A stretch of DNA of 64,000 nt from Clostridia bacterium (GTDB taxonomy: Bacteria > Bacillota > Clostridia > UMGS1883): positions 5,747 through 69,746 of the forward strand of contig JAZNYX010000053.1 in the NCBI GenBank assembly GCA_045594665.1, given 5' to 3'. Of this stretch, positions 2,516-63,185 are shown in pieces. Every line of letters starts with the position of its first letter. The stretch's first letter is position 1. Under the pieces are notes generated by a model that was not told the DNA's origin, searched no databases, and saw only the letters and a list, made by a program, of their open reading frames with translations. A program made the translations under genes and the position numbers.

Positions 2516-2740
2516 CGGGATGTTAAAAATGCCCAGAACATTCGTTGGCGGTTTTATAATTTGAGATAACACTATTTTATAATAACAAGGTTTTCGGTAG
2601 AAATCCGCAAGACGGATTTCCGCTTTGATGCCAACGAATTACGAACAAACTTCACCTCTCGACGTACCCTCGTACGCCTTCGGGTAACCCACGGCAAGCC
2701 GTGGTTCAGTTTGTTCGTTCTGAACATTTTTTCCTATCCC
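2516..2740 (+). repeat. Structured intergenic repeat, copy 1 (subfamily A)
   Basis: 5' GGGATGTTAAAAATG and 3' TTTTTTCCTATCCC termini. Internal hairpin GAAATCCG/CGGATTTC. 3' domain GAACAAACTTCACCTCTCG...GGTTCAGTTTGTTC is shared with the copies at 29834, 33604 and 36671. Confidence 0.85.
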
Positions 2741-2841
2741 TTAAATTCATAAAACTAAATTGTCATTCTGAGGAGCTTGCTACGAAGAATCTCTTAGAAT
2801 GACAATTTCACATTTAAAACTTTTTAATCGAGGATGTTACT

Positions 2842-4288: not shown

Positions 4289-4705
4289 TTAGTCTATATC
4301 ACGGTCACAACCTGCAACGCACTTTACAAGGCACGCAGTAGAAGTAATTATCAGTGAGAAAAACGTAAGAAGCAGTCCCGTTATGATTGCTCCGGCAATA
4401 CTGGTTGCCGCAAAGGTAATAGCAAGAAGTATTACCGACGTGAGAACCGTACCTAAAATCCCCGCAAGGAAAAGAGGAAGAATGGGACACAGGCAATCTC
4501 GGAGATACGGTCTGCCGGGCGACAGTGCCAAAAGTGATATTGCAAGATAACCCACAGCTATACCGAAAGTAGTCCACAAAAATGCAGGAGCTACGGTTAT
4601 AACAGCAGTAATTCTGAGAACTGTTGCAACTACGCCGATAATAATACTTGCGATAATAGCAAGAGCACCGCAGCTATTTCTGCAGCTGCAAGAACAATTA
4701 TACAT
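4289..4705 (-). CDS. Cys-rich polytopic membrane protein, function unknown
   Basis: GGGAGGTG RBS 7 nt upstream. About 4 hydrophobic segments. Cys clusters at both ends (MYNCSCSCRNSC..., ...ACLVKCVAGCD). Confidence 0.6.
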   Translation of the reverse strand: MYNCSCSCRNSCGALAIIASIIIGVVATVLRITAVITVAPAFLWTTFGIAVGYLAISLLALSPGRPYLRDCLCPILPLFLAGILGTVLTSVILLAITFAATSIAGAIITGLLLTFFSLIITSTACLVKCVAGCDRDID

Positions 4706-28948: not shown

Positions 28949-28970
28949 AATATTTTAGGAGATGAATAGT

Positions 28971-29828
28971 ATGTTTTGTAAATCTTGCGGAACTCAGCTA
29001 AATGACGGTGCGAAGTTTTGTAAAAACTGCGGCACAGCCGTTACATATGTAAGCGAAAAGAAAACAGCCGTGGAAAACACTGAAAAGTTTACCCCCGTGC
29101 AGCCCCAGCCTCCCGTGCAGGAGGTGAAGCAGACTGTCTATACACCCCCTGTTCAGCCTGCGATACCGCAAAAGAAAAAGGGTACATCACCCGTTCTTTA
29201 TGTGGTGCTTGGTATTGTTACGGTGCTACTAATTGCCGCAATAGTTGTTTTGGTGATGACTGTTAATAAAAAGAACAATAATGGCGGCGATGATAAAGGC
29301 GGTGTTGTAGAAAAAGAATATGAAATTTTCCTCACGGTAGACGAATATCAGGAAGAAACAGATGAAAAGTCCTGTACATTAAGCGGTACTATATCAACCG
29401 AGAAGGAAAAGGCAACGCTCAGCATTAACGGACAGAAGATTACCACTGTATCGGAAGATGACGGGGAAAAGGTATGGTCAAAGAAGGTAAATCTTGAAGA
29501 AGGAACAAACTCTTTTGATATTGTGCTTTATACTAAAGACAACACAAAGACAAAAACCGAGAATGTGGAAATAGAATATAAAAAGCCTTTGCTTTACCCC
29601 GAGGGAACAGTTCTTATAAAAGCAGACCCCGACGGTGTTAATATAAGACCTACTCCCGAAATCAGCGAAGAGAGGGTAATGCTTATTCCGTACGACGATT
29701 TTCAGTCGCAGTTTATATGCCAGGGTGAAGAACATCTTGATGAGGAGGAATTTATCTGGTGTAAGGTAATGACTCCCGACGGCAAAATCGGCTGGGTTAG
29801 ATCGGACTTAATGAAACCGCTTCAATAA
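28971..29828 (+). CDS. Zinc-ribbon / TM / SH3b-like domain protein
   Basis: CKSCGTQLNDGAKFCKNCG zinc ribbon, Pro-rich linker, one TM segment, C-terminal GKIGWVRSDL SH3-like motif. Confidence 0.6.
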   Translation: MFCKSCGTQLNDGAKFCKNCGTAVTYVSEKKTAVENTEKFTPVQPQPPVQEVKQTVYTPPVQPAIPQKKKGTSPVLYVVLGIVTVLLIAAIVVLVMTVNKKNNNGGDDKGGVVEKEYEIFLTVDEYQEETDEKSCTLSGTISTEKEKATLSINGQKITTVSEDDGEKVWSKKVNLEEGTNSFDIVLYTKDNTKTKTENVEIEYKKPLLYPEGTVLIKADPDGVNIRPTPEISEERVMLIPYDDFQSQFICQGEEHLDEEEFIWCKVMTPDGKIGWVRSDLMKPLQ

Positions 29829-29833
29829 AAAGT

Positions 29834-30063
29834 GGGGATGTTAAAAATGTCCAGACCGCAAAAAGGCAACTTAAAAGAAAATTTAGATAGCATAAATAAT
29901 AAATAATACATTACTGTTGAAAAATCGTATTTATACGATTTTTCTTCTTTTTTAAGCCTTTTTGCTATGAACAAACTTCACCTCTCGCTGTATACACATA
30001 CAGCTTCGGGAAAGCCCCTTCGGGGTTCAGTTTGTCCATTCTGAAGCATTTTTTCCTATCCCC
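29834..30063 (+). repeat. Structured intergenic repeat, copy 2 (subfamily B)
   Basis: GGGGATGTTAAAAATG ... TTTTTTCCTATCCCC. Stems GCAAAAAGGC/GCCTTTTTGC, GAAAAATCGTAT/ATACGATTTTTC, CTGTAT/ATACAG and CCCC-TTCG-GGGG. Confidence 0.85.
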
Positions 30064-30146
30064 ACGTAAAGGCGATATAAAAAACAGACTTTTTTATATC
30101 AAATTCCTTCATTTCGAATTTTGAACTTCGCATTTTGAACTATCCA

Positions 30147-33058: not shown

Positions 33059-33595
33059 ATGAATTATAAAGAATATTTAGTAAAAAGAAAGTTAGGCGCC
33101 GCAGAAATATTGGTTACGGTTATGCTTTATTTCGCAGCGTTTATGTTGGCTCTTTGCTGCCTTTATTATCTGCGTATGCTTGGCGGCATTGAAAGTTTAT
33201 TGGCAGCGGGTGCATTTTACCTGGCGTATATTCTCGCATCCAGACTCAAGAAAGAATTTGAGTATATAATTGTTGAAGACTCGGTAGATATTGATGTCAT
33301 TTTCAATGCATCAAAAAGAAAAAATCTGATATCTTTTTCCGTAAAGCAAATTGAGGTAATGGCGGCAATAAATGATGCGAAATATAATAGCCGTCTTAAG
33401 GAACAATTTGATAAGGTTATAGATGCTTCCACATGGAAAAAAGGTGCCGTAGTATATTTCACCATTCTTGAAAATAAGGGACAAAAGACAATTGTAAAGT
33501 TCGAACCGTCTTTAGCATGTCTGGAATATATGAAGAAATATGCTCCCGACAAAATTCACATAAGCACTGCGGCAGACGATAACGAATTTGAATAA
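33059..33595 (+). CDS. Hypothetical two-TM membrane protein
   Basis: GGAGA RBS and two N-terminal hydrophobic helices. No motif recognised. Confidence 0.5.
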   Translation: MNYKEYLVKRKLGAAEILVTVMLYFAAFMLALCCLYYLRMLGGIESLLAAGAFYLAYILASRLKKEFEYIIVEDSVDIDVIFNASKRKNLISFSVKQIEVMAAINDAKYNSRLKEQFDKVIDASTWKKGAVVYFTILENKGQKTIVKFEPSLACLEYMKKYAPDKIHISTAADDNEFE

Positions 33596-33603
33596 AACAT
33601 ATT

Positions 33604-33836
33604 GGGGATGTTAAAAAACTCCGGATCGCAAAAAGGCAGAAATAAAGTAATTTATGAAAAGCATAAAAGCTAAAGAAAGCTGTATTTTGGTTGAAAAATC
33701 TCAGTATACTCGATTTTTCCCCATTTTAAGCCTTTTTGCTACGAACAAACTTCACCTCTCGCTGTATACACATACAGCTTCGGGCACACCCCTTCGGGGT
33801 TCAGTTTGTCCGTTCTGAAGCTTTTTTCCTATCCCC
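33604..33836 (+). repeat. Structured intergenic repeat, copy 3 (subfamily B)
   Basis: Termini and 3' domain are near-identical to copy 2. Stem GCAAAAAGGC (33628-33637) / GCCTTTTTGC (33730-33739). Confidence 0.85.
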
Positions 33837-33877
33837 AAGAAAGAGGGGTGTAAAGCTTTTTTACACCCCTCTTTCTT
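33837..33877. other. Perfect 18-bp hairpin abutting repeat copy 3
   Basis: AAGAAAGAGGGGTGTAAA / TTTACACCCCTCTTTCTT with a 5-nt loop. No T-run on either side of the 3' arm. Confidence 0.6.
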
Positions 33878-36616: not shown

Positions 36617-36670
36617 ATGCAAAATTAATGAAGAGGGTGCAAAAAATCATTTTTTGCACCCTCTTCATTT

Positions 36671-36907
36671 GGGGATGGAAAAAATAGTGCAGAACGGACA
36701 AACTGAGCCACGGCTTGCCGTGGGTTACCCGAAGGCGTACGCGGGTACGTCGAGAGGTGAAGTTTGTTCGTAGTTCATTGGCATAAAAAAGAGGAAATCC
36801 GTAAAATTTACGGATTTCCACCAAAAACCATATTTTCAAGAATTTTTTTAGTTTTAGAAATACATATTGAGAGCCAATGAACGGTCGGTGCTGCTTTTTG
36901 CATCCCC
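36671..36907 (-). repeat. Structured intergenic repeat, copy 4 (subfamily A, inverted)
   Basis: The reverse complement reads GGGGATGCAAAAAGC ... TTTTTTCCATCCCC. Stems GTTCATTGGC/GCCAATGAAC, GGAAATCCGTAAA/TTTACGGATTTCC, CGTAC/GTACG and CCACGG/CCGTGG. Confidence 0.85.
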
Positions 36908-38080
36908 TTACATATGTTCGGATACAAATTCGCCAATTCTTTCCAGTGCTTTTTCTATGTTTTTAATGCTATAGGCATAACTGCAGCGGATAAAGCCTTC
37001 GCCGCTTTCGCCAAAGGCTGTGCCGGGTACTACGGCTACCTTTTTTTCATAAAGGAGCTTTGTGGCAAATTCCTCGCTTGTAAGTCCCGTGGCACTTATA
37101 TTGGGAAATACGTAGAACGCACCAAGGGGTTCAAAGCAGCTAAGTCCCATTTCGCGAAAGCCGTTTACCATAACACGGCGGCGATGGTCGTATTCACTAC
37201 GCATGTATTCGACCTCGTCATCACAGCTTCGCATTGCCTCAATAGCCGCATACTGGCTAGTGGTGGGGGCACACATAATTGCGTACTGATGAATTTTCGT
37301 CATCTGCTTTATAACAGGTTCGGGACCACAGGCATAGCCGAGCCTCCAACCCGTCATTGCAAATGCCTTACTAAAGCCGTTTACGGTTACTGTCCTTTCC
37401 CACATATCATCTATTGCCGCAAAGGGAACATGGGGATTTCCCGTATAATTAAGCTCGCCGTAAATTTCGTCCGAAAGAACAAAAAGATTATGCTCTTTTA
37501 CAATCTTTGCGATTTTTTCAAGATCCTCCTTTTCCATTACAGCCCCTGTGGGGTTATTGGGGAATGGAAGAATAAGAAGCTTTGACTTAGGTGTGATTTT
37601 TTCAAGGAGCTTTTCGGCAGTCAGCTTGAAATTATCCTTTTCCTCTGTCTGAATAGTAACGGGAGTTCCCCCTGCCATAATAGTGCAGGGCTTGTAGCAA
37701 ACGAAGCAGGGTTCGGGAATCAGCACCTCATCCCCGGGAGAAATTATTGCACGTATAAGAAGGTCAATAGCTTCGCTTCCGCCTACGGTAACAAGAGTCT
37801 CCGTTTTGGGATTGTAGCGTAGATTATACTTTCGCATCAAATAGCTGCAAATCTCGCTTCTAAGCTCTAACAGACCGCTGTTTGCACTGTAGTGGGTGCG
37901 TCCCTTTTCCAAGGAATAAATACCTGCCTCCCTGACTGCCCATGGGGTTACAAAGTCAGGCTCGCCTACGCCTAAGGATATTACGTCCTTCATCTCGGCA
38001 GCCACATCAAAAAATTTTCGGATGCCGCTGGGTGCAAGGGAAGAAATGTTTTCCGATATTAGTTTTGAATAATCTATCAT
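36908..38080 (-). CDS. Class I/II pyridoxal-phosphate aminotransferase
   Basis: 390 aa. SKAFAMTGWRLGY carries the PLP lysine. NPTG motif present. Confidence 0.85.
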   Translation of the reverse strand: MIDYSKLISENISSLAPSGIRKFFDVAAEMKDVISLGVGEPDFVTPWAVREAGIYSLEKGRTHYSANSGLLELRSEICSYLMRKYNLRYNPKTETLVTVGGSEAIDLLIRAIISPGDEVLIPEPCFVCYKPCTIMAGGTPVTIQTEEKDNFKLTAEKLLEKITPKSKLLILPFPNNPTGAVMEKEDLEKIAKIVKEHNLFVLSDEIYGELNYTGNPHVPFAAIDDMWERTVTVNGFSKAFAMTGWRLGYACGPEPVIKQMTKIHQYAIMCAPTTSQYAAIEAMRSCDDEVEYMRSEYDHRRRVMVNGFREMGLSCFEPLGAFYVFPNISATGLTSEEFATKLLYEKKVAVVPGTAFGESGEGFIRCSYAYSIKNIEKALERIGEFVSEHM

Positions 38081-48650: not shown

Positions 48651-48700
48651 AAAAGGCAGTATTTTTATTGCATTTAATGCATTAAAAATACTGCCTTTTA
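48651..48700. terminator. Bidirectional terminator at the host / prophage junction
   Basis: AAAAGGCAGTATTTTTA / TAAAAATACTGCCTTTT long stem between convergent capA and the repressor gene. Confidence 0.7.
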
Positions 48701-48713
48701 TATTTTACCAGTA

Positions 48714-49322
48714 TTACAACTTCGTTGTAAATGACACAGCCTTACCCAATATACGGATATTCTTCGCCTGCTTTTTTGTATATACAATAGGTTTATACTT
48801 AGGATTTTCCGAAACTAAGGTTATGGAATCGGGTGCTTGGTAAACTCTTTTGAGTGTTGCTTCATCGTCTACCAAAACTGCGGCTATCTCGCCGTCATCA
48901 ATTGATTCCTGCTTGCGGATGAAAACCACATCGCCGTCCTTTATGCCTGCACCTGTCATGGAATCTCCGTGAACACGCAAGCAGAAGTCAGCTCCGCAGT
49001 CATCGACGGGGGAATAATATTCGTATTCCTCCGAGGCAAAAATCGGCTGACCTGCTGCAATTTCTCCAAGCAACGGCAGCTTCTTTTTGCTTATTTTCAT
49101 TGCGGCTTCAGGAAGAACATCCTCCTCCCAGCCCATCAGATACGAGGGGGTACAACCAAAAATTTTAGCCATCTCAAGCACTGTTGCGTGCTTGGGATTT
49201 TTTATTTCCCCGCTTTCATAGCGTTGCACCGTAGCTTCCTTAACGCCAAGTGCATTGGCAACGTCCAAAAGAGTCATCCCGAGTGCTGTACGCCTTTCCT
49301 TAATTCTTTCATGTAATTTCAT
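48714..49322 (-). CDS. CI/LexA-type phage repressor (XRE HTH plus S24 peptidase)
   Basis: HTH LGMTLLDVANALGVKEATVQRYESG. S24 domain with VHGDSM and a later catalytic Lys region (ATLKRV). Confidence 0.9.
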   Translation of the reverse strand: MKLHERIKERRTALGMTLLDVANALGVKEATVQRYESGEIKNPKHATVLEMAKIFGCTPSYLMGWEEDVLPEAAMKISKKKLPLLGEIAAGQPIFASEEYEYYSPVDDCGADFCLRVHGDSMTGAGIKDGDVVFIRKQESIDDGEIAAVLVDDEATLKRVYQAPDSITLVSENPKYKPIVYTKKQAKNIRILGKAVSFTTKL

Positions 49323-49379
49323 AATAATTTTCCTTTCATTAATACTTGGAAAAACTGCTTCTACAACGATTATAACACA

Positions 49380-49498
49380 ACTTACTTAAAATGCAAGAAA
49401 AATTTTTAAAAACTTACGTAAAAAGTATTGACTTTCGTCATTTCGTGTTTTATACTGACTTACGTAAAAAGTAAGAAAGTAAAAATACTTACATGAAA
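49380..49498. promoter_or_regulatory. Phage immunity region: early rightward promoter flanked by repeated operators
   Basis: TTGACT (49428-33), 17 nt, TATACT (49451-56). ACTTACGTAAAAAGTA occurs at 49412-49427 and 49458-49473. Diverged copies at 49380-49393 and 49487-49498. Confidence 0.6.
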
Positions 49499-49512
49499 GG
49501 AAAGAATTAACC

Positions 49513-49779
49513 ATGAAATATGAAGGTAAATTTTGTGTTGTGTGCGGAAGAAGAATCCCCGAACTTTCACGCCGAAAGAAAACCTGCAGTGATTTTTGCC
49601 ACCGCAGAAAAAAATGTGGCTATGCACCCTACCTTGGATATGCCAAGCTTCCCTATGATGATTTGACCGCACTCCAACAGGAGGCACACAGCAAAGGAAT
49701 GAGCTACGGCAAATATATGGCAAGTCTGTCCTCTCATGCAGAGAGCAGCAGGAAAGGAGGAGAAAGCATATGCCGATGA
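49513..49779 (+). CDS. Small phage protein with Cys4 zinc-ribbon-like N-terminus
   Basis: CVVCGRR...CSDFC. First rightward gene. Confidence 0.5.
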   Translation: MKYEGKFCVVCGRRIPELSRRKKTCSDFCHRRKKCGYAPYLGYAKLPYDDLTALQQEAHSKGMSYGKYMASLSSHAESSRKGGESICR

Positions 49780-49970
49780 TAATTCAATGTCCCTTTTACA
49801 AAATGGACAGCCATCTTAAGCTCTACTGTGAGGGATGCAGTATGAAGTTTCCCGATATTGCGGCACGGAGAGATTATATTGAAAATTATTGTGCAAACCA
49901 TATTAACTGGCAAAAATGCAGCGTGGCACACTCAATGCAGCGTTATTATGACAGAAAGGACGAAAGGTAA
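49770..49970 (+). CDS. Small Cys-rich phage protein
   Basis: Overlaps neighbours on both sides. CPFY..CEGC..C..C pattern. Confidence 0.45.
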   Translation: MPMIIQCPFYKMDSHLKLYCEGCSMKFPDIAARRDYIENYCANHINWQKCSVAHSMQRYYDRKDER

Positions 49971-50230
49971 TGAATTATAAAAATGAGATTATGCGGAGAG
50001 ATAAACGTATCGAAACCTACAAAAATACAGAAGAGGAACTTAGGGAAGAAATTACAGCTTTAAGACAGCTTCTTGATTGTGCGGCGGCAAACATTGTGCT
50101 TTTGACAAAGGAAAAAGGCGGAAAGGTTACCTTATCTAAAACCGAGGTTAGTGATGCCCTTGGTAAATATCATCTTAGTGCAAAGCGTGACAAGGACGGA
50201 AATTACGCACTGGAGATAAAAGAGGAATGA
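49970..50230 (+). CDS. Small coiled-coil phage protein
   Basis: TAATG and ATGA overlaps with neighbours. Confidence 0.45.
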   Translation: MNYKNEIMRRDKRIETYKNTEEELREEITALRQLLDCAAANIVLLTKEKGGKVTLSKTEVSDALGKYHLSAKRDKDGNYALEIKEE

Positions 50231-51654
50231 ATATAATCTGGACGCCTCAACCCAGACAAAGGGCTTTTATGGAGAGGAAGGAAACGGAAGCTCTCTACGG
50301 CGGTGCGGCAGGCGGAGGAAAAAGCGACTGTGCAATAGCCGAGGCACTAAGGCAGGTGCATATACCCCATTATCGCGGTTTGATTTTAAGAAAAACCTAC
50401 CCACAGCTTTCGGAAATGGTAGACAGAAGCCGTGAGATATACTCCCCTGCGTTTCCCGATGCCAAGTTTAATGACCAAAAGCACTGTTGGACATTTCCTT
50501 CGGGAGCGAAAATCTACTTTGGAGCCATGCAGCATACAAAGGACAGAACCAACTATCAGGGAAAACGCTACGACTTTATAGATTTTGATGAGCTGACGCA
50601 TTTTACATGGGATGAATACAGCTATCTTTTCAGCCGTAACCGTCCCAACGGCCCCGGTACACGCTGTTATATCAGGGCGCAGGCAAACCCCGGAGGAATA
50701 GGGCACGGCTGGGTGAAGGAACGTTTCATTACGCCTGCTCCGCCAATGACACCTATTTATGATGAGGTAAAGATAATGTTCCCCGACGGGAAAAGCGAGC
50801 TTCGCCGTCAAAGCAGAATTTTTGTTCCGTCAAGTGTTTTTGATAATAAAATTCTGATGCAAAATGACCCCGACTATATTACAAGGCTTGCCTCGCTTCC
50901 CGAAAATGAGAAAAAAGCACTTTTATACGGCGATTGGGACAGCTTTTCGGGACAGGTTTTTACGGAATGGAGAAACAACCCCGACGGATATGAAAACCGC
51001 AGAAATACTCACGTAATAAACCCTTTTAAAATTCCCTCCTCATGGAAAATATACCGTGGATTTGACTTTGGTTATTCACGTCCCTTTTCGGTGGGATGGT
51101 ATTGCGTGGACCATGACGGCAGGCTGTACAGGATTAAGGAGCTTTACGGATGTACAGGCACTCCCAACGAAGGTGTAAGATGGGAGCCGGGGCGGATTGC
51201 ACGTGAAATCAGGCGTATTGAAAATGATGATATTAATCTTCGCGGTAAGTATATAAACGGCATTGCTGACCCTTCCATTTTTGATGAAAGCCGCGGCGAA
51301 AGCGTAGGCAGACTGATGGAAAGGGAGGGTGTATATTTTGAAAAAGCAGACAATACCCGTATAGCAGGGAAGATGCAGCTTCATAACAGGTTAGCATTTG
51401 ATGACGAGGGTATTCCCATGCTGTACATATTTTCCACCTGCAAGCATTTTATAAGAACAGTTCCTTCGCTTGTTTACAGTCAGATTGATGTTGAGGACAT
51501 CGACACAACAGCAGAGGATCATATATATGATGAAGTCCGCTATATTGCTATGACAAATCCCATAAATCCGCCTCCCAAAAAACAGCCTCAGATAATGTAT
51601 GATCCGCTTAGTACAGATGATTACAAGCACTATAACTATTACAGATTAGGATGA
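50227..51654 (+). CDS. terL: Terminase large subunit
   Basis: Walker A GGAAGGGKSD, Walker B-like FIDFDE, C-terminal nuclease-like region. Confidence 0.88.
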   Translation: MNIIWTPQPRQRAFMERKETEALYGGAAGGGKSDCAIAEALRQVHIPHYRGLILRKTYPQLSEMVDRSREIYSPAFPDAKFNDQKHCWTFPSGAKIYFGAMQHTKDRTNYQGKRYDFIDFDELTHFTWDEYSYLFSRNRPNGPGTRCYIRAQANPGGIGHGWVKERFITPAPPMTPIYDEVKIMFPDGKSELRRQSRIFVPSSVFDNKILMQNDPDYITRLASLPENEKKALLYGDWDSFSGQVFTEWRNNPDGYENRRNTHVINPFKIPSSWKIYRGFDFGYSRPFSVGWYCVDHDGRLYRIKELYGCTGTPNEGVRWEPGRIAREIRRIENDDINLRGKYINGIADPSIFDESRGESVGRLMEREGVYFEKADNTRIAGKMQLHNRLAFDDEGIPMLYIFSTCKHFIRTVPSLVYSQIDVEDIDTTAEDHIYDEVRYIAMTNPINPPPKKQPQIMYDPLSTDDYKHYNYYRLG

Positions 51655-51658
51655 TGGA

Positions 51659-52201
51659 ATGAAAAGAGAAAAATACGACTGGAAAGCAATTAAAACCGAG
51701 TTTGTTACGGGAGAGGACTCTGCGGTAGCTCTTGCAAAAAAACACGGAATTAATAAGGCCACACTCTACCGTCATTATCAGATAGAGCGTTGGAGTGAGG
51801 CAAGGCAGGAATACAGAGAAAATGTTATGGAAAAATGTGCTGACAATGCAGCCTGCATAGCGGCAATAAAACTGGCAAAGGAAATTGATATAGCCGATAA
51901 GCTTTCCGATGTGCTAAATGAAGCAATAGAGGATAAAAAGCAGTTTTACCGATACATCGTAAAGGAAAAGAACGGAAGTGACAGCGGCGAGGAGGAACGC
52001 ATATTCGGGAAAATGGATATGCAGTCACTCAATAATGCAATAAAAGCACTTTCCGCCCTTCAGGAGATAAAATGCGTGATGTACGGAATCCTGACACCCA
52101 TTGAGGAAAGGAAGCTTCAGATAGGCAGGGAAAAGGAATCGGAGGGTGAAGTAGTAGCGGAAACGGGAGTGGTGATACTCCCGCCGGTGAATGATGATTA
52201 A
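51659..52201 (+). CDS. HTH protein resembling a terminase small subunit
   Basis: DWKAIKTEFVTGEDSAVALAKKHGINKATLYRH..ERW resembles the N-terminus of Firmicute phage small terminases. Position after TerL is atypical. Confidence 0.45.
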   Translation: MKREKYDWKAIKTEFVTGEDSAVALAKKHGINKATLYRHYQIERWSEARQEYRENVMEKCADNAACIAAIKLAKEIDIADKLSDVLNEAIEDKKQFYRYIVKEKNGSDSGEEERIFGKMDMQSLNNAIKALSALQEIKCVMYGILTPIEERKLQIGREKESEGEVVAETGVVILPPVNDD

Positions 52202-52221
52202 TTACAAAGGAGAGGAAAAAA

Positions 52222-53862
52222 TTGAAGATAAGTAGTTTTTTTGCCCCCAAAAGCAATTTTGCCTCAAAGCGAAAAATCGGGGAAAGCGAAATTGCAATGG
52301 CAGGGCAGATATTAAAGGATTATAAAAATGCCAAAGCGGTTTTAGAGGAACGAATCGTAGAAAACGAGCAGTGGTGGAAACTTCGGCATAAGGACTACAG
52401 CAAGGATAGGACAGAAAAAAAGGATGCAGGAAGCAGTAGTGCATGGCTTTTTAATGCCCTGGCAAACAAGCACGCCGATGCCATGGACAGCTTTCCCGAG
52501 GCGACGGTTCTTCCGAGGGAAAAGGATGATGAGGAGGAGGCAAAGAAGCTTTCCGCCATTATCCCTGCAATTATGGAACACAACAATTTTGAGGAGATAT
52601 ATTCAAATAACTGGTGGTATAAACTCAAGCACGGCTGTTGTGCTTACGGAGTTTTCTGGAACAGCGAGCTTGAAGGAGGACTTGGTGATATTCAGATAAA
52701 GAAAATTGACCTTTTGAATGTTTTTTGGGAGCCGGGTATTACCGATATTCAGAAAAGCAGAAATCTTTTTATTGTAAGTCTTCGCGACCAAGATGTTTTA
52801 GAATGTGAATACCCTTCCCTTCGAGGCAAGAATTTGGGAAACAGCGTGGATATCAAGGAGTACATTTATGACAGCACTGTTGACACATCAGGAAAAGTAG
52901 CGGTTGTGGACTGGTACTATAAAGTAAGGAACGAGAATGGAAAAACGCTTCTTCACTACTCTAAATTCGTGGGAGAAAATTTGCTTTTTGCCTCTGAAAA
53001 CTTAGAGGAATACGCCTACAGAGGTTGGTACGACCACGGCGAATACCCTATAGTTTTAGACAGCTTGTTTCCCGAGGAGGGAACGCCTGCAGGCTTTGGC
53101 TTTGTGGCAGTTACCAAAAATCCGCAGATGTATATTGACAAGCTTAATGATGCCATTTTAGAAAATACGCTGATGGCGTCAAAACCCAGATATTTTGCAA
53201 AAATCAGTGCAGGGGTAAATGAAAACGAATTTCTTGACTGGTCACGCCCCATAGTACATGTAGAGGGTGATATTAACGAGGAAAGACTGCGTCCCATCAG
53301 CGTGATGCAGCTTCCGCCCTCCTGTATGGAAATGCTTAGAATGAAAATAGACGAGCTTAAGGAAACAAGCTCCAACAGTGACTTTAACCGAGGTGCCGCC
53401 GTAAACGGCGTAACTGCGGCATCGGCAATAGCGGCATTGCAGGAGGCAGGAAACAAGGTCAGCCGTGATATGCTTAAGGCAACATACCGTGCCTATACCA
53501 AGATAAATTATCTGTGCATAGAGCTTATACGTCAGTTTTACACGGAGCTTAGAAGCTTCCGCATAAATAACCCTGACGGAGGTTATGAATTTACCGAGTA
53601 CAGTAATACAAATATCAGAATCCCTCAAAAGGGAGATGGGTACCGCAAAAGCGTATTTGATATTGCGGTAAAGACACAGAAGAAAAGTCCCTACAGCCGT
53701 CTTTCGCAAAATGAGCTTGCAAAGGAGCTTTTCAACATAGGTTTTTTCAATCCTCAAAATGCAATGCAGTCGCTAAGTGCTCTTGAAATCATGGATTTTG
53801 ACGGTAAAGCGGCAATTGAAGCGAAAATAAGGGAAATAGCTAACTATGAAAGGATGAATTGA
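52222..53862 (+). CDS. Portal protein
   Basis: 546 aa, directly after the terminase genes and before scaffold and capsid. TTG start with AAGGAGAGG RBS. Confidence 0.7.
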   Translation: MKISSFFAPKSNFASKRKIGESEIAMAGQILKDYKNAKAVLEERIVENEQWWKLRHKDYSKDRTEKKDAGSSSAWLFNALANKHADAMDSFPEATVLPREKDDEEEAKKLSAIIPAIMEHNNFEEIYSNNWWYKLKHGCCAYGVFWNSELEGGLGDIQIKKIDLLNVFWEPGITDIQKSRNLFIVSLRDQDVLECEYPSLRGKNLGNSVDIKEYIYDSTVDTSGKVAVVDWYYKVRNENGKTLLHYSKFVGENLLFASENLEEYAYRGWYDHGEYPIVLDSLFPEEGTPAGFGFVAVTKNPQMYIDKLNDAILENTLMASKPRYFAKISAGVNENEFLDWSRPIVHVEGDINEERLRPISVMQLPPSCMEMLRMKIDELKETSSNSDFNRGAAVNGVTAASAIAALQEAGNKVSRDMLKATYRAYTKINYLCIELIRQFYTELRSFRINNPDGGYEFTEYSNTNIRIPQKGDGYRKSVFDIAVKTQKKSPYSRLSQNELAKELFNIGFFNPQNAMQSLSALEIMDFDGKAAIEAKIREIANYERMN

Positions 53863-53863
53863 T

Positions 53864-54562
53864 ATGAAAAAACAAGAAGAAATGCTTGCAATCTCTGCCG
53901 AAAGCGCGCAGAGCGGAGATAGTAAAGAGGCTGAAAAAATGGCAGCAATCAGCCGGCTGCCCGCGGGCGAAGAAGGTCTTGCCGCCGAAGACACAAAAAA
54001 CAAAGATGATGAATTCCGCAGCCTTATTAAAGGCGAATATAAGGAGCAGTTTAATAAGGCAGTGCAGAAAATCATCACAAAGAGACTAAAGGAGGTGAAA
54101 GAAGTGAAGGGAGCATCAGAAAAAACTGCAAGAGTTATAGAAAGACTCCTTGCAGAAAACAGTTATCTCAAAAAGGAACAAACAAGAAGGGCGCACGATA
54201 CAGAGGTTAATTCTCTTGTGACTGAGTGGAAAAAGCAGGCAGAGGAAACTAAGAAGTTGTACAGTGATTTTGACCTTAAGAAGGAACTTGAAAATCCCGA
54301 ATTTAGCAGGCTTTTGAAGCTTGGCGTGAGCATGAAGACCGCTTACGAGGTTCTCAATATTGACTCCATTTTGGATAAAAACTCAAAGAATGCAGAAAAA
54401 ATGGTGGTTGATTCAATCAGACTTAAGGGAAACCGCCCTGTTGAAAACGGAAGCGAGGACGCAGGCGGAATTATTCTTTCAAGCAATGTTTCAAAGCTTA
54501 ATAAAAAGCAGAGAGCAGAGCTTGCAAAGAGAGCGGCAAAGGGAGAAAGAATCAGTTTCTGA
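53864..54562 (+). CDS. Scaffolding protein
   Basis: Highly charged, predicted helical, between portal and capsid. Confidence 0.6.
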   Translation: MKKQEEMLAISAESAQSGDSKEAEKMAAISRLPAGEEGLAAEDTKNKDDEFRSLIKGEYKEQFNKAVQKIITKRLKEVKEVKGASEKTARVIERLLAENSYLKKEQTRRAHDTEVNSLVTEWKKQAEETKKLYSDFDLKKELENPEFSRLLKLGVSMKTAYEVLNIDSILDKNSKNAEKMVVDSIRLKGNRPVENGSEDAGGIILSSNVSKLNKKQRAELAKRAAKGERISF

Positions 54563-54591
54563 AAAAGAAAGAGAAAGAAAGGATGAAGTAA

Positions 54592-55911
54592 ATGTTTAAG
54601 TTTAATTTGCAGCATTTTGCTGCAGGCAATGTTGTACATACCTCAAGCGGTATTGCAAATTCTAACACAGGTGAGGTAGCTTCCTATGGTGAAGCAGGCG
54701 GTCTTTCAAATGAAATGAAGACCTATTATTCAGACTATCTTATTGATATGGCAGAGCCCAAGCTGGTGCATGACCAGTTCGGACAGAAGTGTACTATCCC
54801 CAAGAATGGCGGTAAGACTATTGAATTTCGTAAGTACGATCCCCTTCCCAAGATGACTACACCCCTTGTAGAGGGAGTAACTCCCGACGGGCAGAAGATG
54901 GAACTGGGCGTTGTCAGGGCAGAGGTCAAGCAGTACGGTGGCTTTATTGAGCTTTCCGATATTCTTATGCTTGCGGCTATTGATAACAATCTTGTTCAGG
55001 CAACCAAGCTTTTGGGCGGTCAGGCAGGAAGAACCCTTGACGCAATCACAAGAGAGGTTCTCTGCGGCGGTACAAACGTACAGTTTGCCGAAGGGCAGGT
55101 TGCATCAAGAAGCCTTCTTACAGGCGGAAAGGAATCAGGCAATCATTATCTTACGGTTGACAGTATAAGACGTGCAGTGCGTTATATTAAGAAAATGAAT
55201 GCGGAAACGATTAACGGAAGCTATGTGGGTATTATTCACCCCGATACAGCTTACGACCTTATGAGCGATCCCAAATGGATTAACGTTAAGACATATTCCG
55301 ACCCCGAGGGTATCTATCAGGGTGAAATCGGTAAGATTGAAAACGTAAGATTCGTTGAAAGCTCCGAAGCAAAGGTAATTCACGCAGAGGACCTTTGCAA
55401 GGAAAGCAGAAATCTTACAGTTTCCTCCTACAGCACACTTTCATCTGTAGGCAAGGTGACACATGGAGAAGGAAGCTTGTACAAGCTTGTCGTAGAGGAG
55501 TCTCTTACGGAGGAAGATGCAGCAAGACTTGTGGATGCAACCATTCAGCTTGGTGTGGAAGACAGTATTGAAGTATTAAGTGTAGGCGGTGTTGATATAG
55601 AGAATAAAGCCCTCTATCTTTATGCAGAGCCTGCCAATACTCCTTCAGGTGGCGATGTTTTATACCCCGGTGAAGCGGGCTTTAAGGGTTGTGACGTTTA
55701 TGTAACCCTTATTATCGGCGATAACGCTTACGGTACTACGGAAATCTCAGGCGGCGGTTTGCAGCACATTGTAAAGCAGCTCGGCTCTGCAGGAAGTGCC
55801 GACCCCCTTAATCAGCGTGCTACAGCAGGCTGGAAGGCTACAAAGGCGGCTGTAAGACTTGTAGAACCCTACATGATTCGTATAGAAACAGCAAGCACAT
55901 TCGGTAACTAA
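54592..55911 (+). CDS. Major capsid protein
   Basis: 439 aa after the scaffold gene. N-terminal FNLQHFA motif is common in Firmicute phage head proteins. Confidence 0.75.
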   Translation: MFKFNLQHFAAGNVVHTSSGIANSNTGEVASYGEAGGLSNEMKTYYSDYLIDMAEPKLVHDQFGQKCTIPKNGGKTIEFRKYDPLPKMTTPLVEGVTPDGQKMELGVVRAEVKQYGGFIELSDILMLAAIDNNLVQATKLLGGQAGRTLDAITREVLCGGTNVQFAEGQVASRSLLTGGKESGNHYLTVDSIRRAVRYIKKMNAETINGSYVGIIHPDTAYDLMSDPKWINVKTYSDPEGIYQGEIGKIENVRFVESSEAKVIHAEDLCKESRNLTVSSYSTLSSVGKVTHGEGSLYKLVVEESLTEEDAARLVDATIQLGVEDSIEVLSVGGVDIENKALYLYAEPANTPSGGDVLYPGEAGFKGCDVYVTLIIGDNAYGTTEISGGGLQHIVKQLGSAGSADPLNQRATAGWKATKAAVRLVEPYMIRIETASTFGN

Positions 55912-55976
55912 ATTTAAAATATTCGTTCTGCGGCGGTAAAGCCGCAGAACGTAATAAAACACAGGAGGAATATTTT

Positions 55977-56258
55977 ATGGCAACTAAAAATACTTTGGAA
56001 AAAACAAAGGCAAAGGTCGTTGATGAAAATTCATTGGTGGAAATTGAGCTTTTCCGTGACAATAAGGACTACAAGGACAATGTTTTTGTGGCAGTAAACG
56101 GGGAAAGCTGTGTAATTGCCCGTGGTAAAAAGGTAAAAATCAAAAAGAAGTTTGCAGACATAATCGCTCTTTCCATGAAGCAGGATGTCAAGACTGCCCG
56201 TCTTATGGAGAGTACGTCAGATGAGTTTTTTGCCCAGGCAGCCGCAAGAAATATTTAA
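55977..56258 (+). CDS. Phage hypothetical protein (head-associated by position)
   Basis: AGGAGG RBS. 93 aa. Confidence 0.4.
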   Translation: MATKNTLEKTKAKVVDENSLVEIELFRDNKDYKDNVFVAVNGESCVIARGKKVKIKKKFADIIALSMKQDVKTARLMESTSDEFFAQAAARNI

Positions 56259-56273
56259 AGGGAGGTAGTGCCT

Positions 56274-57383
56274 ATGGCAAGCTTTAATCTCGGAAGAATA
56301 AAAGGCGATAAAGGTGATAAGGGCGATACAGGTGCAAAGGGTGACAAGGGCGATAGAGGAGAAAGAGGGGAAAAAGGAAGCGATGCTCAAACTCCCGTTT
56401 TCACAATAGGTGATACAAAGACGCTTCCTTCATCTGAGGAAGCGTATGTGGAATTAAATACAAAGGATATATTAAATCCCGTTCTCAGCTTTTCCATTCC
56501 CCGCGGTCATGACGGAAAAGACGCCGACGGCGACATGAAGTCAGCAGTGTATGATCCTGAGGGACTAAATCAGGATATATTTGCTTACGCAAGGAATCTT
56601 GCAGATGCTTGTATAAAAAAAGACGGCGGAAGGCTTTCGGGTGCTCTTGATGCAGGTGAAAATTCTCTGGAACTTCCTTGTGTGCGTAATGTGTCGGTTG
56701 TCACGTCACTTCCCGAAAGCGGAGCAAACGGCGATATCTGCATTATAGTAGAGGAGGAAAACGGCAAAAAGCTTGGCGAGTGTGCAGTTGGTACTTCATT
56801 TTTGGTAACTGAGGGAGAAACCGAGTGCGAATATATCATTATCGGAAAAAACTTTCATGGGGAAAACAGTGTGACACTTGTAAGAAAACACCTTACGGAT
56901 ATAGTCCTTCAGTTAGATACCAGTGCCCGTGTGTCATATGCTATGAGTGATACAGATGTATTCCTTGAAACAATGTATATAAACCTTTTCCCCGAAAGAA
57001 TAAGAAAGCTTCTGATGCTTACAAACATTGAAAACGGTTTTATGCGCAGGTGCTTTCCGCTCGCTTATACGGAGCTTTATTCCATGGAATATTTTTCCTC
57101 GACGGACCTGAGATGTGCCACAAAAAAGGGAACTTCCACAAAGAGCGTATACTTCACAAGAAGCGTATCCGATAGCAACAATGCCTACGGGGTGTCGGAT
57201 GTAGGAAATTTTACCACTCTGAGAAAATCTGCACAATACCCTTTAAGACCGGCAATAGTGCTTCCTTACGATACCGTGGTGGCAAACACGGAATATAATT
57301 CTTCTCCGGCAGTGAAGCTTTATGACGCGCCCTGCGGAATATATGTTTTCTCCGGCGGAAAATGGAAGGAGTGTAGGGATTGA
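56274..57383 (+). CDS. Collagen-like repeat protein (fibre or decoration)
   Basis: Nine G-X-Y triplets (GDKGDKGDTGAKGDKGDRGERGEKGSD) at 56304-56384. GGAGG RBS favours ATG 56274. Confidence 0.7.
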   Translation: MASFNLGRIKGDKGDKGDTGAKGDKGDRGERGEKGSDAQTPVFTIGDTKTLPSSEEAYVELNTKDILNPVLSFSIPRGHDGKDADGDMKSAVYDPEGLNQDIFAYARNLADACIKKDGGRLSGALDAGENSLELPCVRNVSVVTSLPESGANGDICIIVEEENGKKLGECAVGTSFLVTEGETECEYIIIGKNFHGENSVTLVRKHLTDIVLQLDTSARVSYAMSDTDVFLETMYINLFPERIRKLLMLTNIENGFMRRCFPLAYTELYSMEYFSSTDLRCATKKGTSTKSVYFTRSVSDSNNAYGVSDVGNFTTLRKSAQYPLRPAIVLPYDTVVANTEYNSSPAVKLYDAPCGIYVFSGGKWKECRD

Positions 57384-57736
57384 TGCGTACAATTAACTCT
57401 GTAATAGAGCAGACTTCTAAACTGCACCCCGACACTATTTCCGATGCTATTAAGTGCCGCTGGCTCAGCGAGCTTGACGGAAAGATAATGCGTGAAACCA
57501 TGCATAAGAATGACTTTAAGCCATATTCCTTTCCAGAAGACGGAGAAAGAGAGCTTGTGGTGGGAGAACCATACGACAACATATATGAACTGTACCTTAT
57601 TGCTATGAGCGACTTTTTCAGCGGAGAAATGGCAAACTACAGTGCATCTGCAATCTTGTTCGAGCAGGCATATTCGGAATTTCGTAAGAATTACCTGAGA
57701 AATAATATTCCTCACGGGCAAAAATTTATATATTAA
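57380..57736 (+). CDS. Phage hypothetical protein
   Basis: Overlapping start (ATGA-type) within the structural module. Confidence 0.4.
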   Translation: MMRTINSVIEQTSKLHPDTISDAIKCRWLSELDGKIMRETMHKNDFKPYSFPEDGERELVVGEPYDNIYELYLIAMSDFFSGEMANYSASAILFEQAYSEFRKNYLRNNIPHGQKFIY

Positions 57737-57748
57737 GGAGGAGTATGT

Positions 57749-59530
57749 ATGCATCTTCCCATAATTAAAGGTGGCAGCAGGTATAAAAAAAGCACCACAT
57801 ACTTCGGGGGCATTAATATGCTTCAGGATTTTTCGGAGGGTGAGCTTTGTGAGTGTAACGGAATTTCTCATTTGAGCTTTCCTGCCATTACTCAAAGACA
57901 AAAAAGCGAGTCAGTGTTTGAGTGCAATGCCCCCTCTGCCATGATTTTCGGAAAAAAAGAATGTATTGCCGCAGACGGAGGACTGTACTACGACCGCAAA
58001 AAGGTGGCTACGCTCACCCCGGGAAGAAAGAACCTTGCGATTTTAGGTGATAAAATCGCGGTTTTCCCAGATAAGATTTTTTACGATACCAAAACGGGAA
58101 GTACGGGTGACCTTCAGGGTGAGTGTAAAAGCCACGATGGCGTAACGGTAACCTTTTCCAAAAGCTCTATTAGTGTTCCCTCCGTTTACAATGAAGAAAC
58201 CATTTTGGTGGAAAGACTTTCATTTCTCAAAGACACTGACATTTTCACTTATAATTCCGTGACCTGCAAAAATGCGGAATATACCTTTTCGGGCTTTAAA
58301 CTAAAGAAAATACAAGAGCTTGCCCCTGATGTCATATTCAGGGAAAAGTGTGAAAAAAATCAGTACAGGCGTGTCGTGAGCATCCGTGAAGATGAGGAAA
58401 CAGGTAGCTTTGTGGTGGATAATGAACTCATATCCGTAAATAACAGTGTAAAAAATCTGTTTTCACAGCTGAAGAGCGGAGACGTGGTAGAAATATCGGG
58501 ATGTAAGAAATATGCAAGTAATAACAAGACGGCACAAATTGTTTCTGCATCGGCATCCGTTCTTCGGTTCGCCGATGAAACCTTTACAGAGTCAGAGGAA
58601 ACCGCCGTAATTACAATTAAGCGAAAGATTCCCGATTTTTCATGTGTGTGCAGTTATGAAAACAGACTGTGGGGCTGTGAGGGAAATACTATATACGCCT
58701 CGGCGTTGGGTGATATGACAAACTTCTTCATATACAAGAATCTATCCACCGACAGCTTCAGTGTAATGTCAAATTCTGCAGGGGATTTTACAGCCTGCGT
58801 GCCATTTGGTAACTGTTGCTTATTCTTTAAGGAGAACGGCTGTTTTAAGCTTTACGGAAACCGTCCGTCAAATTTTCAGCTTACCGAAAGCTACGGAGGC
58901 GGAGTCCTTGGTACGGATTCAAAAAGCATCGTAAGTATCGGAGGCAGAATTATATATAAGGGAAGCGGCGGAATCTACACGTTTTACGGCGGAGTACCCC
59001 AATGCATTTCTCAGAAGCTGATGGGAATTACAATGGATAACGCCGTTTCGGGAAGCGACGGAAAACGGTTCTATATAACTGCCGATACAGAGGAAGGCAG
59101 AGAAGAATTTGTCTGGGACATGGAAAGAAACTTGTGGAGCAAATCAGGAGTAAGGGATGTTATAGGTTATTCTTTCTATGGCGGAAATTTATATCGCTTG
59201 CACCCTCACGGAGTGGAAAAGCTTTTAGAGGAAACGGATGATAAAGCCGATTGGAGCATTACTCTTTGCCCATTTGACGAGGATTACCACAAAACCAAAA
59301 ATTACACAAGACTCTATATAAGCGTTCACCTTTTCGAAAACGCATACATAAACACTCAGATTAGCTGTGATAACGGGCCCTGGAGTGATGTTCACACCTG
59401 CTATGCAAATGAGAAGAAGTATTTGAATATACCCTGCGTTATAAAAAGCTGTCACAGCGTAAAGCTGAGGCTTTCGGGAAAAGGGAAGTGCCTTCTTGAA
59501 TCGATAACCAGAGAATTTTCAGTTAATTAA
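57749..59530 (+). CDS. Phage structural protein, function unknown
   Basis: 593 aa, GGAGG RBS. No motif recognised. Confidence 0.45.
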   Translation: MHLPIIKGGSRYKKSTTYFGGINMLQDFSEGELCECNGISHLSFPAITQRQKSESVFECNAPSAMIFGKKECIAADGGLYYDRKKVATLTPGRKNLAILGDKIAVFPDKIFYDTKTGSTGDLQGECKSHDGVTVTFSKSSISVPSVYNEETILVERLSFLKDTDIFTYNSVTCKNAEYTFSGFKLKKIQELAPDVIFREKCEKNQYRRVVSIREDEETGSFVVDNELISVNNSVKNLFSQLKSGDVVEISGCKKYASNNKTAQIVSASASVLRFADETFTESEETAVITIKRKIPDFSCVCSYENRLWGCEGNTIYASALGDMTNFFIYKNLSTDSFSVMSNSAGDFTACVPFGNCCLFFKENGCFKLYGNRPSNFQLTESYGGGVLGTDSKSIVSIGGRIIYKGSGGIYTFYGGVPQCISQKLMGITMDNAVSGSDGKRFYITADTEEGREEFVWDMERNLWSKSGVRDVIGYSFYGGNLYRLHPHGVEKLLEETDDKADWSITLCPFDEDYHKTKNYTRLYISVHLFENAYINTQISCDNGPWSDVHTCYANEKKYLNIPCVIKSCHSVKLRLSGKGKCLLESITREFSVN

Positions 59531-59543
59531 AGAGGTGAGAGCT

Positions 59544-59729
59544 ATGTTCATGCAATTAGCGGATTTAAACGGAAAGTCAGCAGAGGAAGCTGTGCGTATC
59601 ATAGAGGACTATCTGCGATCAAACCAAGAGCTTTTAGAGTATATATTAACACATCTTGACAGCTCCAACATTATTGAAATTGATTTAAGCAAAACAAATA
59701 TTTATAAGGGGGATGAAAATGAGCTATAA
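59544..59729 (+). CDS. Phage hypothetical protein
   Basis: AGAGGTG RBS. 61 aa. Confidence 0.35.
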   Translation: MFMQLADLNGKSAEEAVRIIEDYLRSNQELLEYILTHLDSSNIIEIDLSKTNIYKGDENEL

Positions 59730-60777: not shown

Positions 60778-60812
60778 GTTTATATTATCGCCTTAATAAA
60801 GCAAAAAAAGAC

Positions 60813-60841
60813 TTGCCATAAGCGTCAAAAAAGCTTATAAT
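60813..60841 (+). promoter_or_regulatory. Sigma-A type promoter for nfnAB
   Basis: TTGCCA, 17 nt, TATAAT. Confidence 0.55.
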
Positions 60842-60873
60842 AAGTCTTATATACAGGCGAAAGGATGAACATT

Positions 60874-61716: not shown

Positions 61717-61717
61717 T

Positions 61718-63109: not shown

Positions 63110-63127
63110 ATTTAAATTAAAAATAAG

Positions 63128-63169
63128 AATCCCTCATGAAACCACTCAGTGGTTTTATGGGGGATTTTT
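63128..63169 (+). terminator. Intrinsic terminator after nfnB
   Basis: AATCCCTCATGAAACCAC / GTGGTTTTATGGGGGATT followed by TTTT. Confidence 0.7.
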
Positions 63170-63185
63170 AGTTAGGAGAAGTGAA

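Follow-up and report, generated by a model that had tools for sequence, protein, structure and literature searches.

Among described bacterial repeats, SPRITE and BOX of Streptococcus pneumoniae come nearest in function and position (Croucher et al. 2011, PMC3049150; review PMC10969869) to the element reported here, a ~230-nt repeat studied from one of its copies, c2, in a stretch of 64,000 nucleotides from a Clostridia bacterium (assembly GCA_045594665.1, contig JAZNYX010000053.1; this whole stretch is called the window below). SPRITE too is small, AT-rich and interspersed, and its long stem leads into a T-rich tract; it is likewise strongly enriched near coding-sequence 3' ends and in convergent intergenic regions, a target-site duplication could not be established for it either, and its co-option as a terminator has been proposed (PMC3049150). 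SPRITE forms a single 18-bp duplex with a U-rich tract and has only AAAA/TTTT as its ends (PMC3049150), whereas the present element is ~230 nt long, combines a three-part closing stem with an internal hairpin and a three-way-junction domain, and lies within a few nt of a stop codon; they share no sequence relationship, and their host taxa differ. With BOX of S. pneumoniae, and with ERIC and Correia, the element shares a modular build, terminal repeats that would pair in the transcript and a probable co-transcription with neighbouring genes, and with BOX also an internal module that is optional or variable (boxB in the one, hairpin 2 and the spacer in the other). The effects of BOX, ERIC and Correia are exerted via RNA structure and cleavage by RNase III or RNase E (PMC3049150, PMC10969869). 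They have target-site duplications and are regarded as MITEs (transposable elements of the miniature inverted-repeat type), whereas the present element has no visible duplication; no junction domain as invariant, and no placement next to stop codons, is reported for them.

ERIC and Correia, and also REP/BIME with their RAYT transposases, are more distant than SPRITE and BOX. REP/BIME share with the present element that they are transcribed extragenic palindromes at gene 3' ends, that they show no target-site duplication and that short hairpins occur alone or in composite arrays, and one subfamily here has GTAG at its 5' end (GGGCTGTAGC). However, REPs measure 20-40 nt, GTAG varies among our subfamilies (GTGA, GTTA, GTAA, GTAT), and linkage to a RAYT gene was not found within the window. 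Integron attC sites offer a conceptual parallel, in that structure prevails over sequence, the site lies directly past a co-oriented stop codon and the strand antisense to the open reading frame (ORF) is the one that folds. The ends of the present element read CAGAAC/GTTCTG and not the R''/R' consensus RYYYAAC/GTTRRRY, and in contrast to cassette arrays it is scattered next to housekeeping genes (topA, a PBP-region gene, an aminotransferase gene), far larger and branched.

We report that c2 is one member of a large, previously undescribed family of ~230-nt modular, structure-constrained interspersed repeats in uncultured gut Clostridia. The family is new but of a known kind, that of structured small interspersed repeats at gene ends, within which its architecture and placement are unusual.

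Results

A repeat family of uncultured gut Clostridia

The window contains four copies of the element, c1 to c4 (Table 1), and consists of ordinary chromosome (topA, trmFO, ORFs of rpoB/C size, metK, glmS and others) with what appears to be a prophage from ~48.7 kb. A core 14-mer of the element occurs five times in the 64 kb against 0.46 occurrences expected, and a covariance model of the 3' domain, R1, recovered exactly c1 to c4 and nothing else. Scanning for the exact 19-mer GAACAAACTTCACCTCTCG with one genome per species gave at least 115 loci among the matches listed (referred to below by L numbers), and R1 added ~18 copies lacking the exact 19-mer. The carriers among the matches listed are all Clostridia metagenome-assembled genomes from human and ruminant guts, with record labels of Oscillospiraceae, Congzhengia, Ructibacterium or simply Clostridia / Eubacteriales. 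No family of Rfam 15 reached its gathering threshold in the window or in 11 further loci, and at a permissive threshold the region around c2 yielded chance-level matches only (E of 2 or more). BLAST searches of phage and plasmid collections returned zero matches to the element; one contig of IMG/VR matches it. An ORF inside the element was found in none of ~120 copies, and coding potential was ruled out by indels whose lengths are not divisible by three, as well as by the compensatory patterns described below.

Architecture of the element

Taking as sense the strand of the upstream gene, the element reads from 5' to 3' as P0/P1 strand, P2 arm, spacer, central hairpin, P2 arm, 3-nt linker, 3' domain and P1/P0 strands (Table 1). 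P0, P1 and P2 together form a three-part closing stem of ~40 bp that encloses the spacer, the central hairpin and the three-way-junction domain. The P0/P1 strand comprises ~24 nt (e.g. GGGATGTTAAAAATGCCCAGAAC, with GTTCTGAACATTTTTTCCTATCCC as its 3' terminal partner), and the termini are imperfect inverted repeats of that length (GGGATGTTAAAAATGcCCAGAAC / GTTCTGAAcATTTTTTCCTATCCC); MITEs, too, have terminal inverted repeats. Both ends change jointly among subfamilies, from GGGATG/ATCCC to GGGCTG/CAGCCC, GGACGT/ACATCC and GGGCGT...GCCC. The 10-bp stem P2 exists in many versions (GCAAAAAGGC, GCATAAAGCA, ACACAAGGCA, GTTCATTGGC, ACTCAAAACA, GTTAAGTGGC and others), and the central hairpin has a semi-conserved stem sequence (AAATTCG/CGAATTT and similar forms).

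Conservation within the element is highest in the 3' domain. Its hairpin 2 has 25 distinct stems among 67 distinct inserts. For A26 of this domain (column numbering of alignment A4), in P5, pairing with the GGT directly after CTTCG was considered and rejected (76 A-T plus 18 non-standard pairs); its partner is the T just before TCAG (87 A-T, 5 G-C and 2 A-C). The CACCTC of the 3' domain resembles the 3' tail of 16S rRNA. Compared with shuffled sequences, c2 folds far better on either strand (z = -8.1 and -7.9), values that are uninformative on which strand matters, the element being a nested palindrome.

Table 1. Features of copy c2, with the remaining copies in the window and the hairpins beside them.
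Feature	Positions	Strand	Remarks
Copy c2	29834-30063	+	230 nt, non-coding; 5 nt 3' of TAA stop codon
TAA stop codon of ORF 28962-29828 (zinc-ribbon + SH3 domains)	29826-29828	+	co-oriented, upstream of c2
P0/P1 outer closing stem, 5' strand (left terminal inverted repeat), GGGGATGTTAAAAATGTCCAGACC	29834-29857	+	complementary to 30038-30063
P2 long-range stem, 5' arm, GCAAAAAGGC	29858-29867	+	partner 29956-29965
AT-rich spacer	29868-29918	+	sequence and length unconstrained; aligns poorly
Central hairpin GAAAAATCGTA-TTTA-TACGATTTTTC (29919-29944), then TTCTTTTTTA	29919-29954	+	intrinsic-terminator-like in sense
P2 long-range stem, 3' arm, GCCTTTTTGC	29956-29965	+	partner 29858-29867
Conserved 3' domain (three-way junction)	29969-30037	+	model R1, alignment A4
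P4 outer stem of 3' domain, 9 bp, GAACAAACT/AGTTTGTCC			fixed A.C mismatch
2x2 loop of 3' domain			TC/TC in 115/118 copies
Closing pair of 3' domain in c2	A29980-T30026		then two C-G pairs (CC/GG)
4x4 internal loop of 3' domain			TCTC/TTCG
Hairpin 1 of 3' domain in c2	29987-30004	+	
Hairpin 2 of 3' domain in c2, CCCC-TTC-GGGG	30015-30025	+	optional in family, length highly variable
P1/P0, 3' strand (right terminal inverted repeat), ATTCTGAAGCATTTTTTCCTATCCCC	30038-30063	+	partner of 29834-29857
AT-rich hairpin GATATAAAAAA-CAGAC-TTTTTTATATC	30074-30100		10 nt past c2
Copy c1	2517-2741	+	begins 3 nt past TAA stop codon of topA (432-2513)
Copy c3	33604-33836	+	begins 8 nt past stop codon of DUF6106 gene (33059-33595)
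Perfect 41-nt hairpin AAGAAAGAGGGGTGTAAA-GCTTT-TTTACACCCCTCTTTCTT	33837-33877		directly past c3; arms resemble element's 5' end
Copy c4	36671-36907	-	directly after TAA of aminotransferase gene (36908-38080, minus strand)
Central hairpin of c4	36819-36793	-	terminator-like in terminator scan
20-bp perfect hairpin (AATGAAGAGGGTGCAAAAAAT...)	36627-36669		past c4; arms resemble 5' end of c4 (GGGGATGCAAAAAG)

Compensatory changes maintain all helices

Pairing was evaluated in a full-length alignment of 83 copies (A2) and in a model-based alignment of the 3' domain of 119 copies (A4), with 500 shuffles and slid pairing partners as controls. In A2, standard pairs occupy 91.7% of cells, against 80.2% in the shuffles and 26-40% with slid partners. 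Over the two alignments, the slid-partner values span 20-40%. Both sides change in 24 of the 40 pairs (400 cells), and the covariation score of 0.320, against 0.114 for the shuffles, was reached by 0 of 500. Double changes affect all ten pairs of P2 (96.6% paired; 965 of 1010 cells Watson-Crick) and all seven pairs of the central hairpin (96.4% paired). In A4, both sides change in 13 of 22 pairs, and the observed covariation was again reached by 0 of 500 shuffles. The 19-mer used for scanning fixed one arm of P4, so that covariation in this stem is visible only among the ~18 extra copies found with the model: CACGAAC/GTTCGTG in L045, G-C replaced by A-T in L013, and a T-A pair replaced by G-C, C-G or A-T in L061, L024, L018 and L005. 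The closing A-T pair of the 3' domain is G-C in five copies (L009, L020, L066, L105, L078). All helices of the element are thus maintained by compensatory change, far beyond chance or passive decay.

An earlier note, made on this DNA from the letters of the window, had proposed that the repeat functions as a folded RNA. The sequences it quoted are all present, apart from one slip in position (GCCAACGAAT of c1 lies at 2630-2639, not at 2629-2638). The two double compensations that it saw when comparing the long-range stems of c1 and c4 were confirmed, and c2 and c3 do keep the same pairing with different sequence in that stem; the same is true of hairpin 1, hairpin 2 and the central hairpin. 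The larger alignments make the observation much stronger than four copies could. Of its wider claim, selection on intramolecular pairing stands; the choice of RNA over single-stranded DNA does not follow, covariation being unable to discriminate between them. In the same way, its argument against a MITE applies to passive decay, which is excluded, and does not extend to an active, structure-dependent repeat family.

Paired parts are conserved at orthologous sites

Four pairs of loci from different species share the same upstream gene, at 74-98% amino-acid identity. Across these pairs, four-fold degenerate sites of the upstream gene are 52-59% identical, and the spacer of the element 51%, as against 93% for the arms P0-P1-P2, 91% for the 3' half and 75% for the central hairpin region. 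The paired parts and the junction domain are therefore held constant where neutral sites are saturated. Compensatory changes were also found within orthologous pairs (ACAAATTCG...CGAATTTGT vs AAAAATTCG...CGAATTTTT; GGAGTAT...ATACACC vs GCAGTAT...ATACAGC), and hairpin 2 was exchanged outright between the orthologous copies L007 and L033. Because the helices are kept by compensation, and because the stems and the 3' domain are conserved where spacer and four-fold sites have drifted, a folded single strand is under selection, be it RNA or single-stranded DNA.

The DNA version of this statement is a purely selfish, non-autonomous mobile element of the MITE/REP/PATE type, whose hairpins would be single-stranded-DNA recognition structures for a trans-acting enzyme, for example a transposase of the HUH/Y1 type that leaves no target duplication. 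Uniformity would then stem from continued copying and gene conversion, and the position at gene ends from targeting of terminator-like hairpins together with purifying selection elsewhere. We regard this explanation as rather unlikely, but several features of the family speak for it. The terminal inverted repeats co-vary between subfamilies and, as mentioned, hairpin 2 has been swapped between orthologous copies; tail-to-head tandem copies occur, as do solo 5' halves followed by an unrelated terminator. Close to a full copy in L087, ~10 nt past it, lies an internally deleted derivative composed of the 5' terminal repeat, TTTGCTACGAAC and the 3' terminal repeat; the ends of the element can therefore persist without its interior. 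No flanking direct repeat was detected in 27 copies with sharply defined ends, where old copies could have lost one, and flank matches, if any, extend the inverted repeat (TAA...TTA). The ends resemble IS1595/IS6-like ends (GGGgCTG), a likeness set aside since neither an 8-bp duplication nor a transposase was found.

Presence of the element also varies between relatives. A scan with the PBP protein retrieved one close relative, a metagenome contig (L116) without c3, on which the PBP gene is 90% identical in amino acids. An ordinary terminator hairpin begins there at the point where the element begins in the window, and the element with its following hairpin occupies the terminator's place. This site is a replaced intergenic region rather than a clean empty site, and it gives no clean boundaries or duplication; exact-protein look-ups of two upstream proteins, made in search of strain-level empty sites, found neither on record. 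As is typical of MITEs, copies of less than 300 bp are dispersed (four in 64 kb, at least 115 loci) and differ in presence between relatives, as c3 does. On the other side, a Pfam scan of 30 ORFs in the first ~52 kb of the window revealed no transposase, the copies contain no ORF of their own, and they persist at orthologous sites with a neutral spacer and conserved stems.

The element is placed at the ends of genes

Gene context was taken from a crude ORF call. The gene on the 5' side of the element is co-oriented in 91 of 104 copies. Divergent gene pairs have not a single copy between them, convergent pairs account for 44 copies, and tandem gene pairs contain 31 sense and 12 antisense copies. 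The stop codon of the upstream gene ends -16 to +2 nt from the first G of the element in ~70 of 89 copies, and the 5' end of the element typically follows the stop codon of a co-oriented gene by 0-10 nt. Moreover, stop triplets are a constant feature of the 5' terminal repeat (TGA-TAA, TAG or TAA at positions ~6-12; e.g. window 29840-29845, and L045, L089, L006, L109). For ~13 copies it is this repeat that supplies the upstream ORF with its TGA, TAA or TAG stop codon (TGTGATAA, TGTAA, GTTAA), so that some host proteins end within the element.

Orientation follows the adjacent gene (83 vs 13) and not the local majority gene strand (36 vs 30), which argues against a replication-strand rule; a replication-linked orientation was accordingly left as unsupported. 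With the majority strand as a proxy for replication, this behaviour also differs from that of IS200/IS605-type elements and counts against the selfish-element explanation.

The antisense strand is the better-folded one

In the version of the earlier note, the functional molecule is the sense transcript, that is, the 3' untranslated region of the upstream gene, stabilised by UUCG-type tetraloops. By genomic position, sense is presumably the strand transcribed by default, because there is no room for a terminator ahead of the element and because sense copies occur 15-50 nt upstream of the next ribosome-binding site. Sense copies internal to operons exist, and CTTCGG is nearly invariant. Furthermore, a ribosome positioned on the stop codon would cover part of the closing stem's 5' strand with its footprint, which might permit translation-dependent folding.

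The details of the fold point the other way. On the sense strand, the 3' domain has A.C or C.A mismatches in 156 cells and G.U in 13. The A.C mismatches are concentrated at P4 position 2 (107 of 118 copies), at hairpin 1 position 2 (33 of 118; no G.U there) and at the inner end of P1, and the L045 variant has its P4 mismatch flipped to C.A. Read on the antisense strand, the fixed A.C sites become G.U pairs. The 2x2 and 4x4 loops, pyrimidine-pyrimidine in sense, become tandem GA/GA (with Watson-Crick pairs instead in two copies) and CGAA/GAGA, the T-N-C loops of hairpin 2 become G-N-A triloops closed by C-G, and CAAG becomes G(CUUG)C. Standard pairs make up 91.9% of cells in sense and 97.5% in antisense. 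The RNAalifold energy is -22.0 for sense and -40.8 for antisense. Of 110 domains, 109 have the lower minimum free energy in antisense, as do 98 of 101 full elements, with the same outcome under DNA parameters. Two points caution against reading too much into this: G/U-rich strands generally fold better, and DNA hairpins, too, owe particular stability to GNA triloops, tandem G.A and G.T. The latter also speaks for a DNA-level mobile element.

The tetraloop argument did not hold up. Hairpin-2 loops are mostly T-N-C triloops (TAC, TGC, TTC, TCC) or CAAG rather than UNCG, and reading them as UNCG breaks a pair in stems such as GTCC-TTC-GGAC. In the modelled fold, the invariant CTTCGG is not a tetraloop but one side of the 4x4 internal loop (UCUC/UUCG) plus flanking pairs; its flanking bases join the pairs G35-C55, C27-G61 and C28-G60, and as these are near-invariant, covariation neither confirms nor excludes a mini-hairpin. 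Twelve copies, finally, lie antisense within tandem gene pairs. We therefore favour the antisense strand as the better-folded one, and consider the strand assumed in the earlier note less likely on structural grounds; as a whole, a functional sense 3' untranslated region is unlikely. On the other hand, the better-folding strand serves the neighbouring gene as template and is normally not exposed in single-stranded form, and this is difficult to reconcile with recognition of single-stranded DNA.

Both strands have features resembling intrinsic terminators. A terminator scan flagged the central hairpins of c2 and c4, and the mean folding energy of the central hairpin is -11.1 kcal/mol. At least five T in the nine nt after it were found in 51 of 100 copies in sense and in 29 of 100 in antisense. 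For the closing stem the order is reversed, with at least five U among nine nt following it in 44 of 92 copies in antisense and in 13 of 92 in sense.

An embedded small-RNA gene would require a promoter within the element: the 3' domain would be transcribed in sense from past the central hairpin to the following hairpin, or a separate antisense RNA would be made. A perfect TATAAT does occur after the central hairpin and before the P2 3' arm, copies with it are followed by a strong hairpin and T-run, and the 3' domain, which would be the RNA, is the part most conserved. However, TATAAT is confined to one subfamily (L001, L022, L027, L031, L041, L088) and has no -35 element at proper spacing. 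A promoter-like motif conserved across the family was found on neither strand, and promoter-like sites in the window (27) are not above the shuffle expectation of 22.1. We consider such a gene very unlikely.

Hairpins, tandem copies and other repeats associated with the element

Within 20 nt of their 3' end, 39 of 107 copies have a perfect hairpin with a stem of 9 bp or more (median 15 bp), and the 5' end of another copy follows in 11; a strong downstream hairpin or tandem copy is thus present in 50 of 107. In several subfamilies the arms of the downstream hairpin repeat the element's own 5' terminal sequence, e.g. GGAGCTGTAGCAAAATG...CATTTTGCTACAGCTCC after copies of the GGGCTGTAGCAAAATG type. 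Perfect terminal-sequence hairpins of 35-45 nt (e.g. GCTGTAGCAAAATG...CATTTTGCTACAGC; window 33837-33877 and 36627-36669, L020:223, L088:5364, L100:2224) are situated next to copies or alone, an occurrence in line with a selfish element. Those standing alone look like terminators. Such hairpins may be miniature forms of the element, or else the target into which it inserts.

A short motif, CCTTCATTTCGAA, with two to three tandem units of ~7 nt (TTCGAAC, TTCGCAT) was observed 40-100 nt downstream of the element at five loci in different genomes (window 30105-30141; L012:3784, L020:1810, L054:724, L070:912). A two-hairpin module of ~55 nt (GCCTCCCTTGnnTAAAGGGAGG, a GC-rich hairpin, GGAGGGATT) was noted at L018:4385 and 4645. 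It sits in the spacers of L017, L052, L066, L075, L086 and L114, is found alone outside the element at L002:7921 and L050:2833, and has no Rfam match. Two copies harbour, in their 3' domain or 3' arm, a different element of ~290 nt whose inverted ends read GGCATAAT.../...ATTATGCC. It lies at L003:~4290-4555 and, on the minus strand of L035, about 80-370 nt past the core motif; in L035 a TA appears to be duplicated. In L093, hairpin 1 is interrupted by another insertion, ~190 nt long.

The prophage-like right end of the window (~48700-64000) includes an S24/HTH repressor-like gene (48714-49322, minus strand) and a gene for a large terminase subunit (50227-51654). Two ORFs of this region contain 9-nt periodic arrays (GGT/GGC GAT AAA and similar; window 56292-56387 and 63846-63941), which would encode collagen-like Gly-X-Y repeats.

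Discussion

From the structure, covariation, position and conservation described above we infer that the element is transcribed, terminates transcripts and may be processed by RNase III. In our preferred interpretation, to which we assign a probability of roughly 0.45, it is a mobile or formerly mobile, structure-constrained gene-end or terminator module that acts through a folded transcript at the 3' boundary of genes. The element would be transcribed passively along with its neighbours. In sense, the central hairpin with its T-run, or a hairpin past the element, would end the upstream transcript. In antisense, the whole element could zip into a GC-closed giant hairpin of ~40 bp with a U-rich tract, exactly at the stop codon, and this hairpin may block convergent or spurious antisense transcription before it enters the gene. 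The long closing duplex would also make a plausible RNase III substrate or 3'-end protector. A boundary module would account for why the element is enriched between convergent genes, is absent from promoter regions, sits at stop codons and folds better in antisense, and for the replacement of an ordinary terminator at the c3 site.

Several observations weigh against it. The T-run after the central hairpin is present in just about half of the copies, and at least ten sense copies lie 15-50 nt before the ribosome-binding site of the next gene, so efficient termination cannot be universal. A terminator model assigns no role to the three-way junction, the most conserved part of the element. The A-rich sequence ahead of the element is in part due simply to TAA as the stop codon and to final codons rich in A and T. 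When the two fixed sites are set aside, mismatches in the 3' domain number 16 A.C vs 13 G.U, and in P2 12 A.C vs 10 G.U; recent single mismatches thus show no strand bias. Identity at orthologous sites could result from gene conversion among copies rather than from selection at the level of the host, the exchange of hairpin 2 between L007 and L033 being an example. Finally, the copies are related, and shuffle statistics overstate their independence; this kinship affects neither the control with slid partners nor the evidence from the many different kinds of pair.

That the element is a true cis-acting RNA device is an idea that we hold to be decidedly improbable. The closing stem would begin in the footprint of the terminating ribosome; translation would decide whether the 40-bp clamp and the invariant junction fold, and the fold would in turn set the fate of the transcript, such as termination or insulation against convergent transcription, cleavage by RNase III, or recognition of the GA-rich junction by a conserved protein. 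If true, the repeats would constitute a new class of mobile, translation-coupled gene-boundary elements throughout a clade of uncultured gut Clostridia.

The family provides a well-supported set of structured repeats, for which a covariance model and a secondary structure now exist, in a clade known almost only from metagenomes; elements of this sort confuse the annotation of genes and terminators. Compared with described bacterial repeats, it is atypical in its placement within a few nt of stop codons, in keeping its stems at orthologous sites despite saturated synonymous divergence, and in folding better on the strand opposite to the neighbouring gene. If the elements are only selfish, their structure points to a putative single-strand-dependent mobilisation system. 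If they act on transcripts, as in the boundary-module interpretation, they would give these bacteria a mobile means of installing gene-end boundaries.

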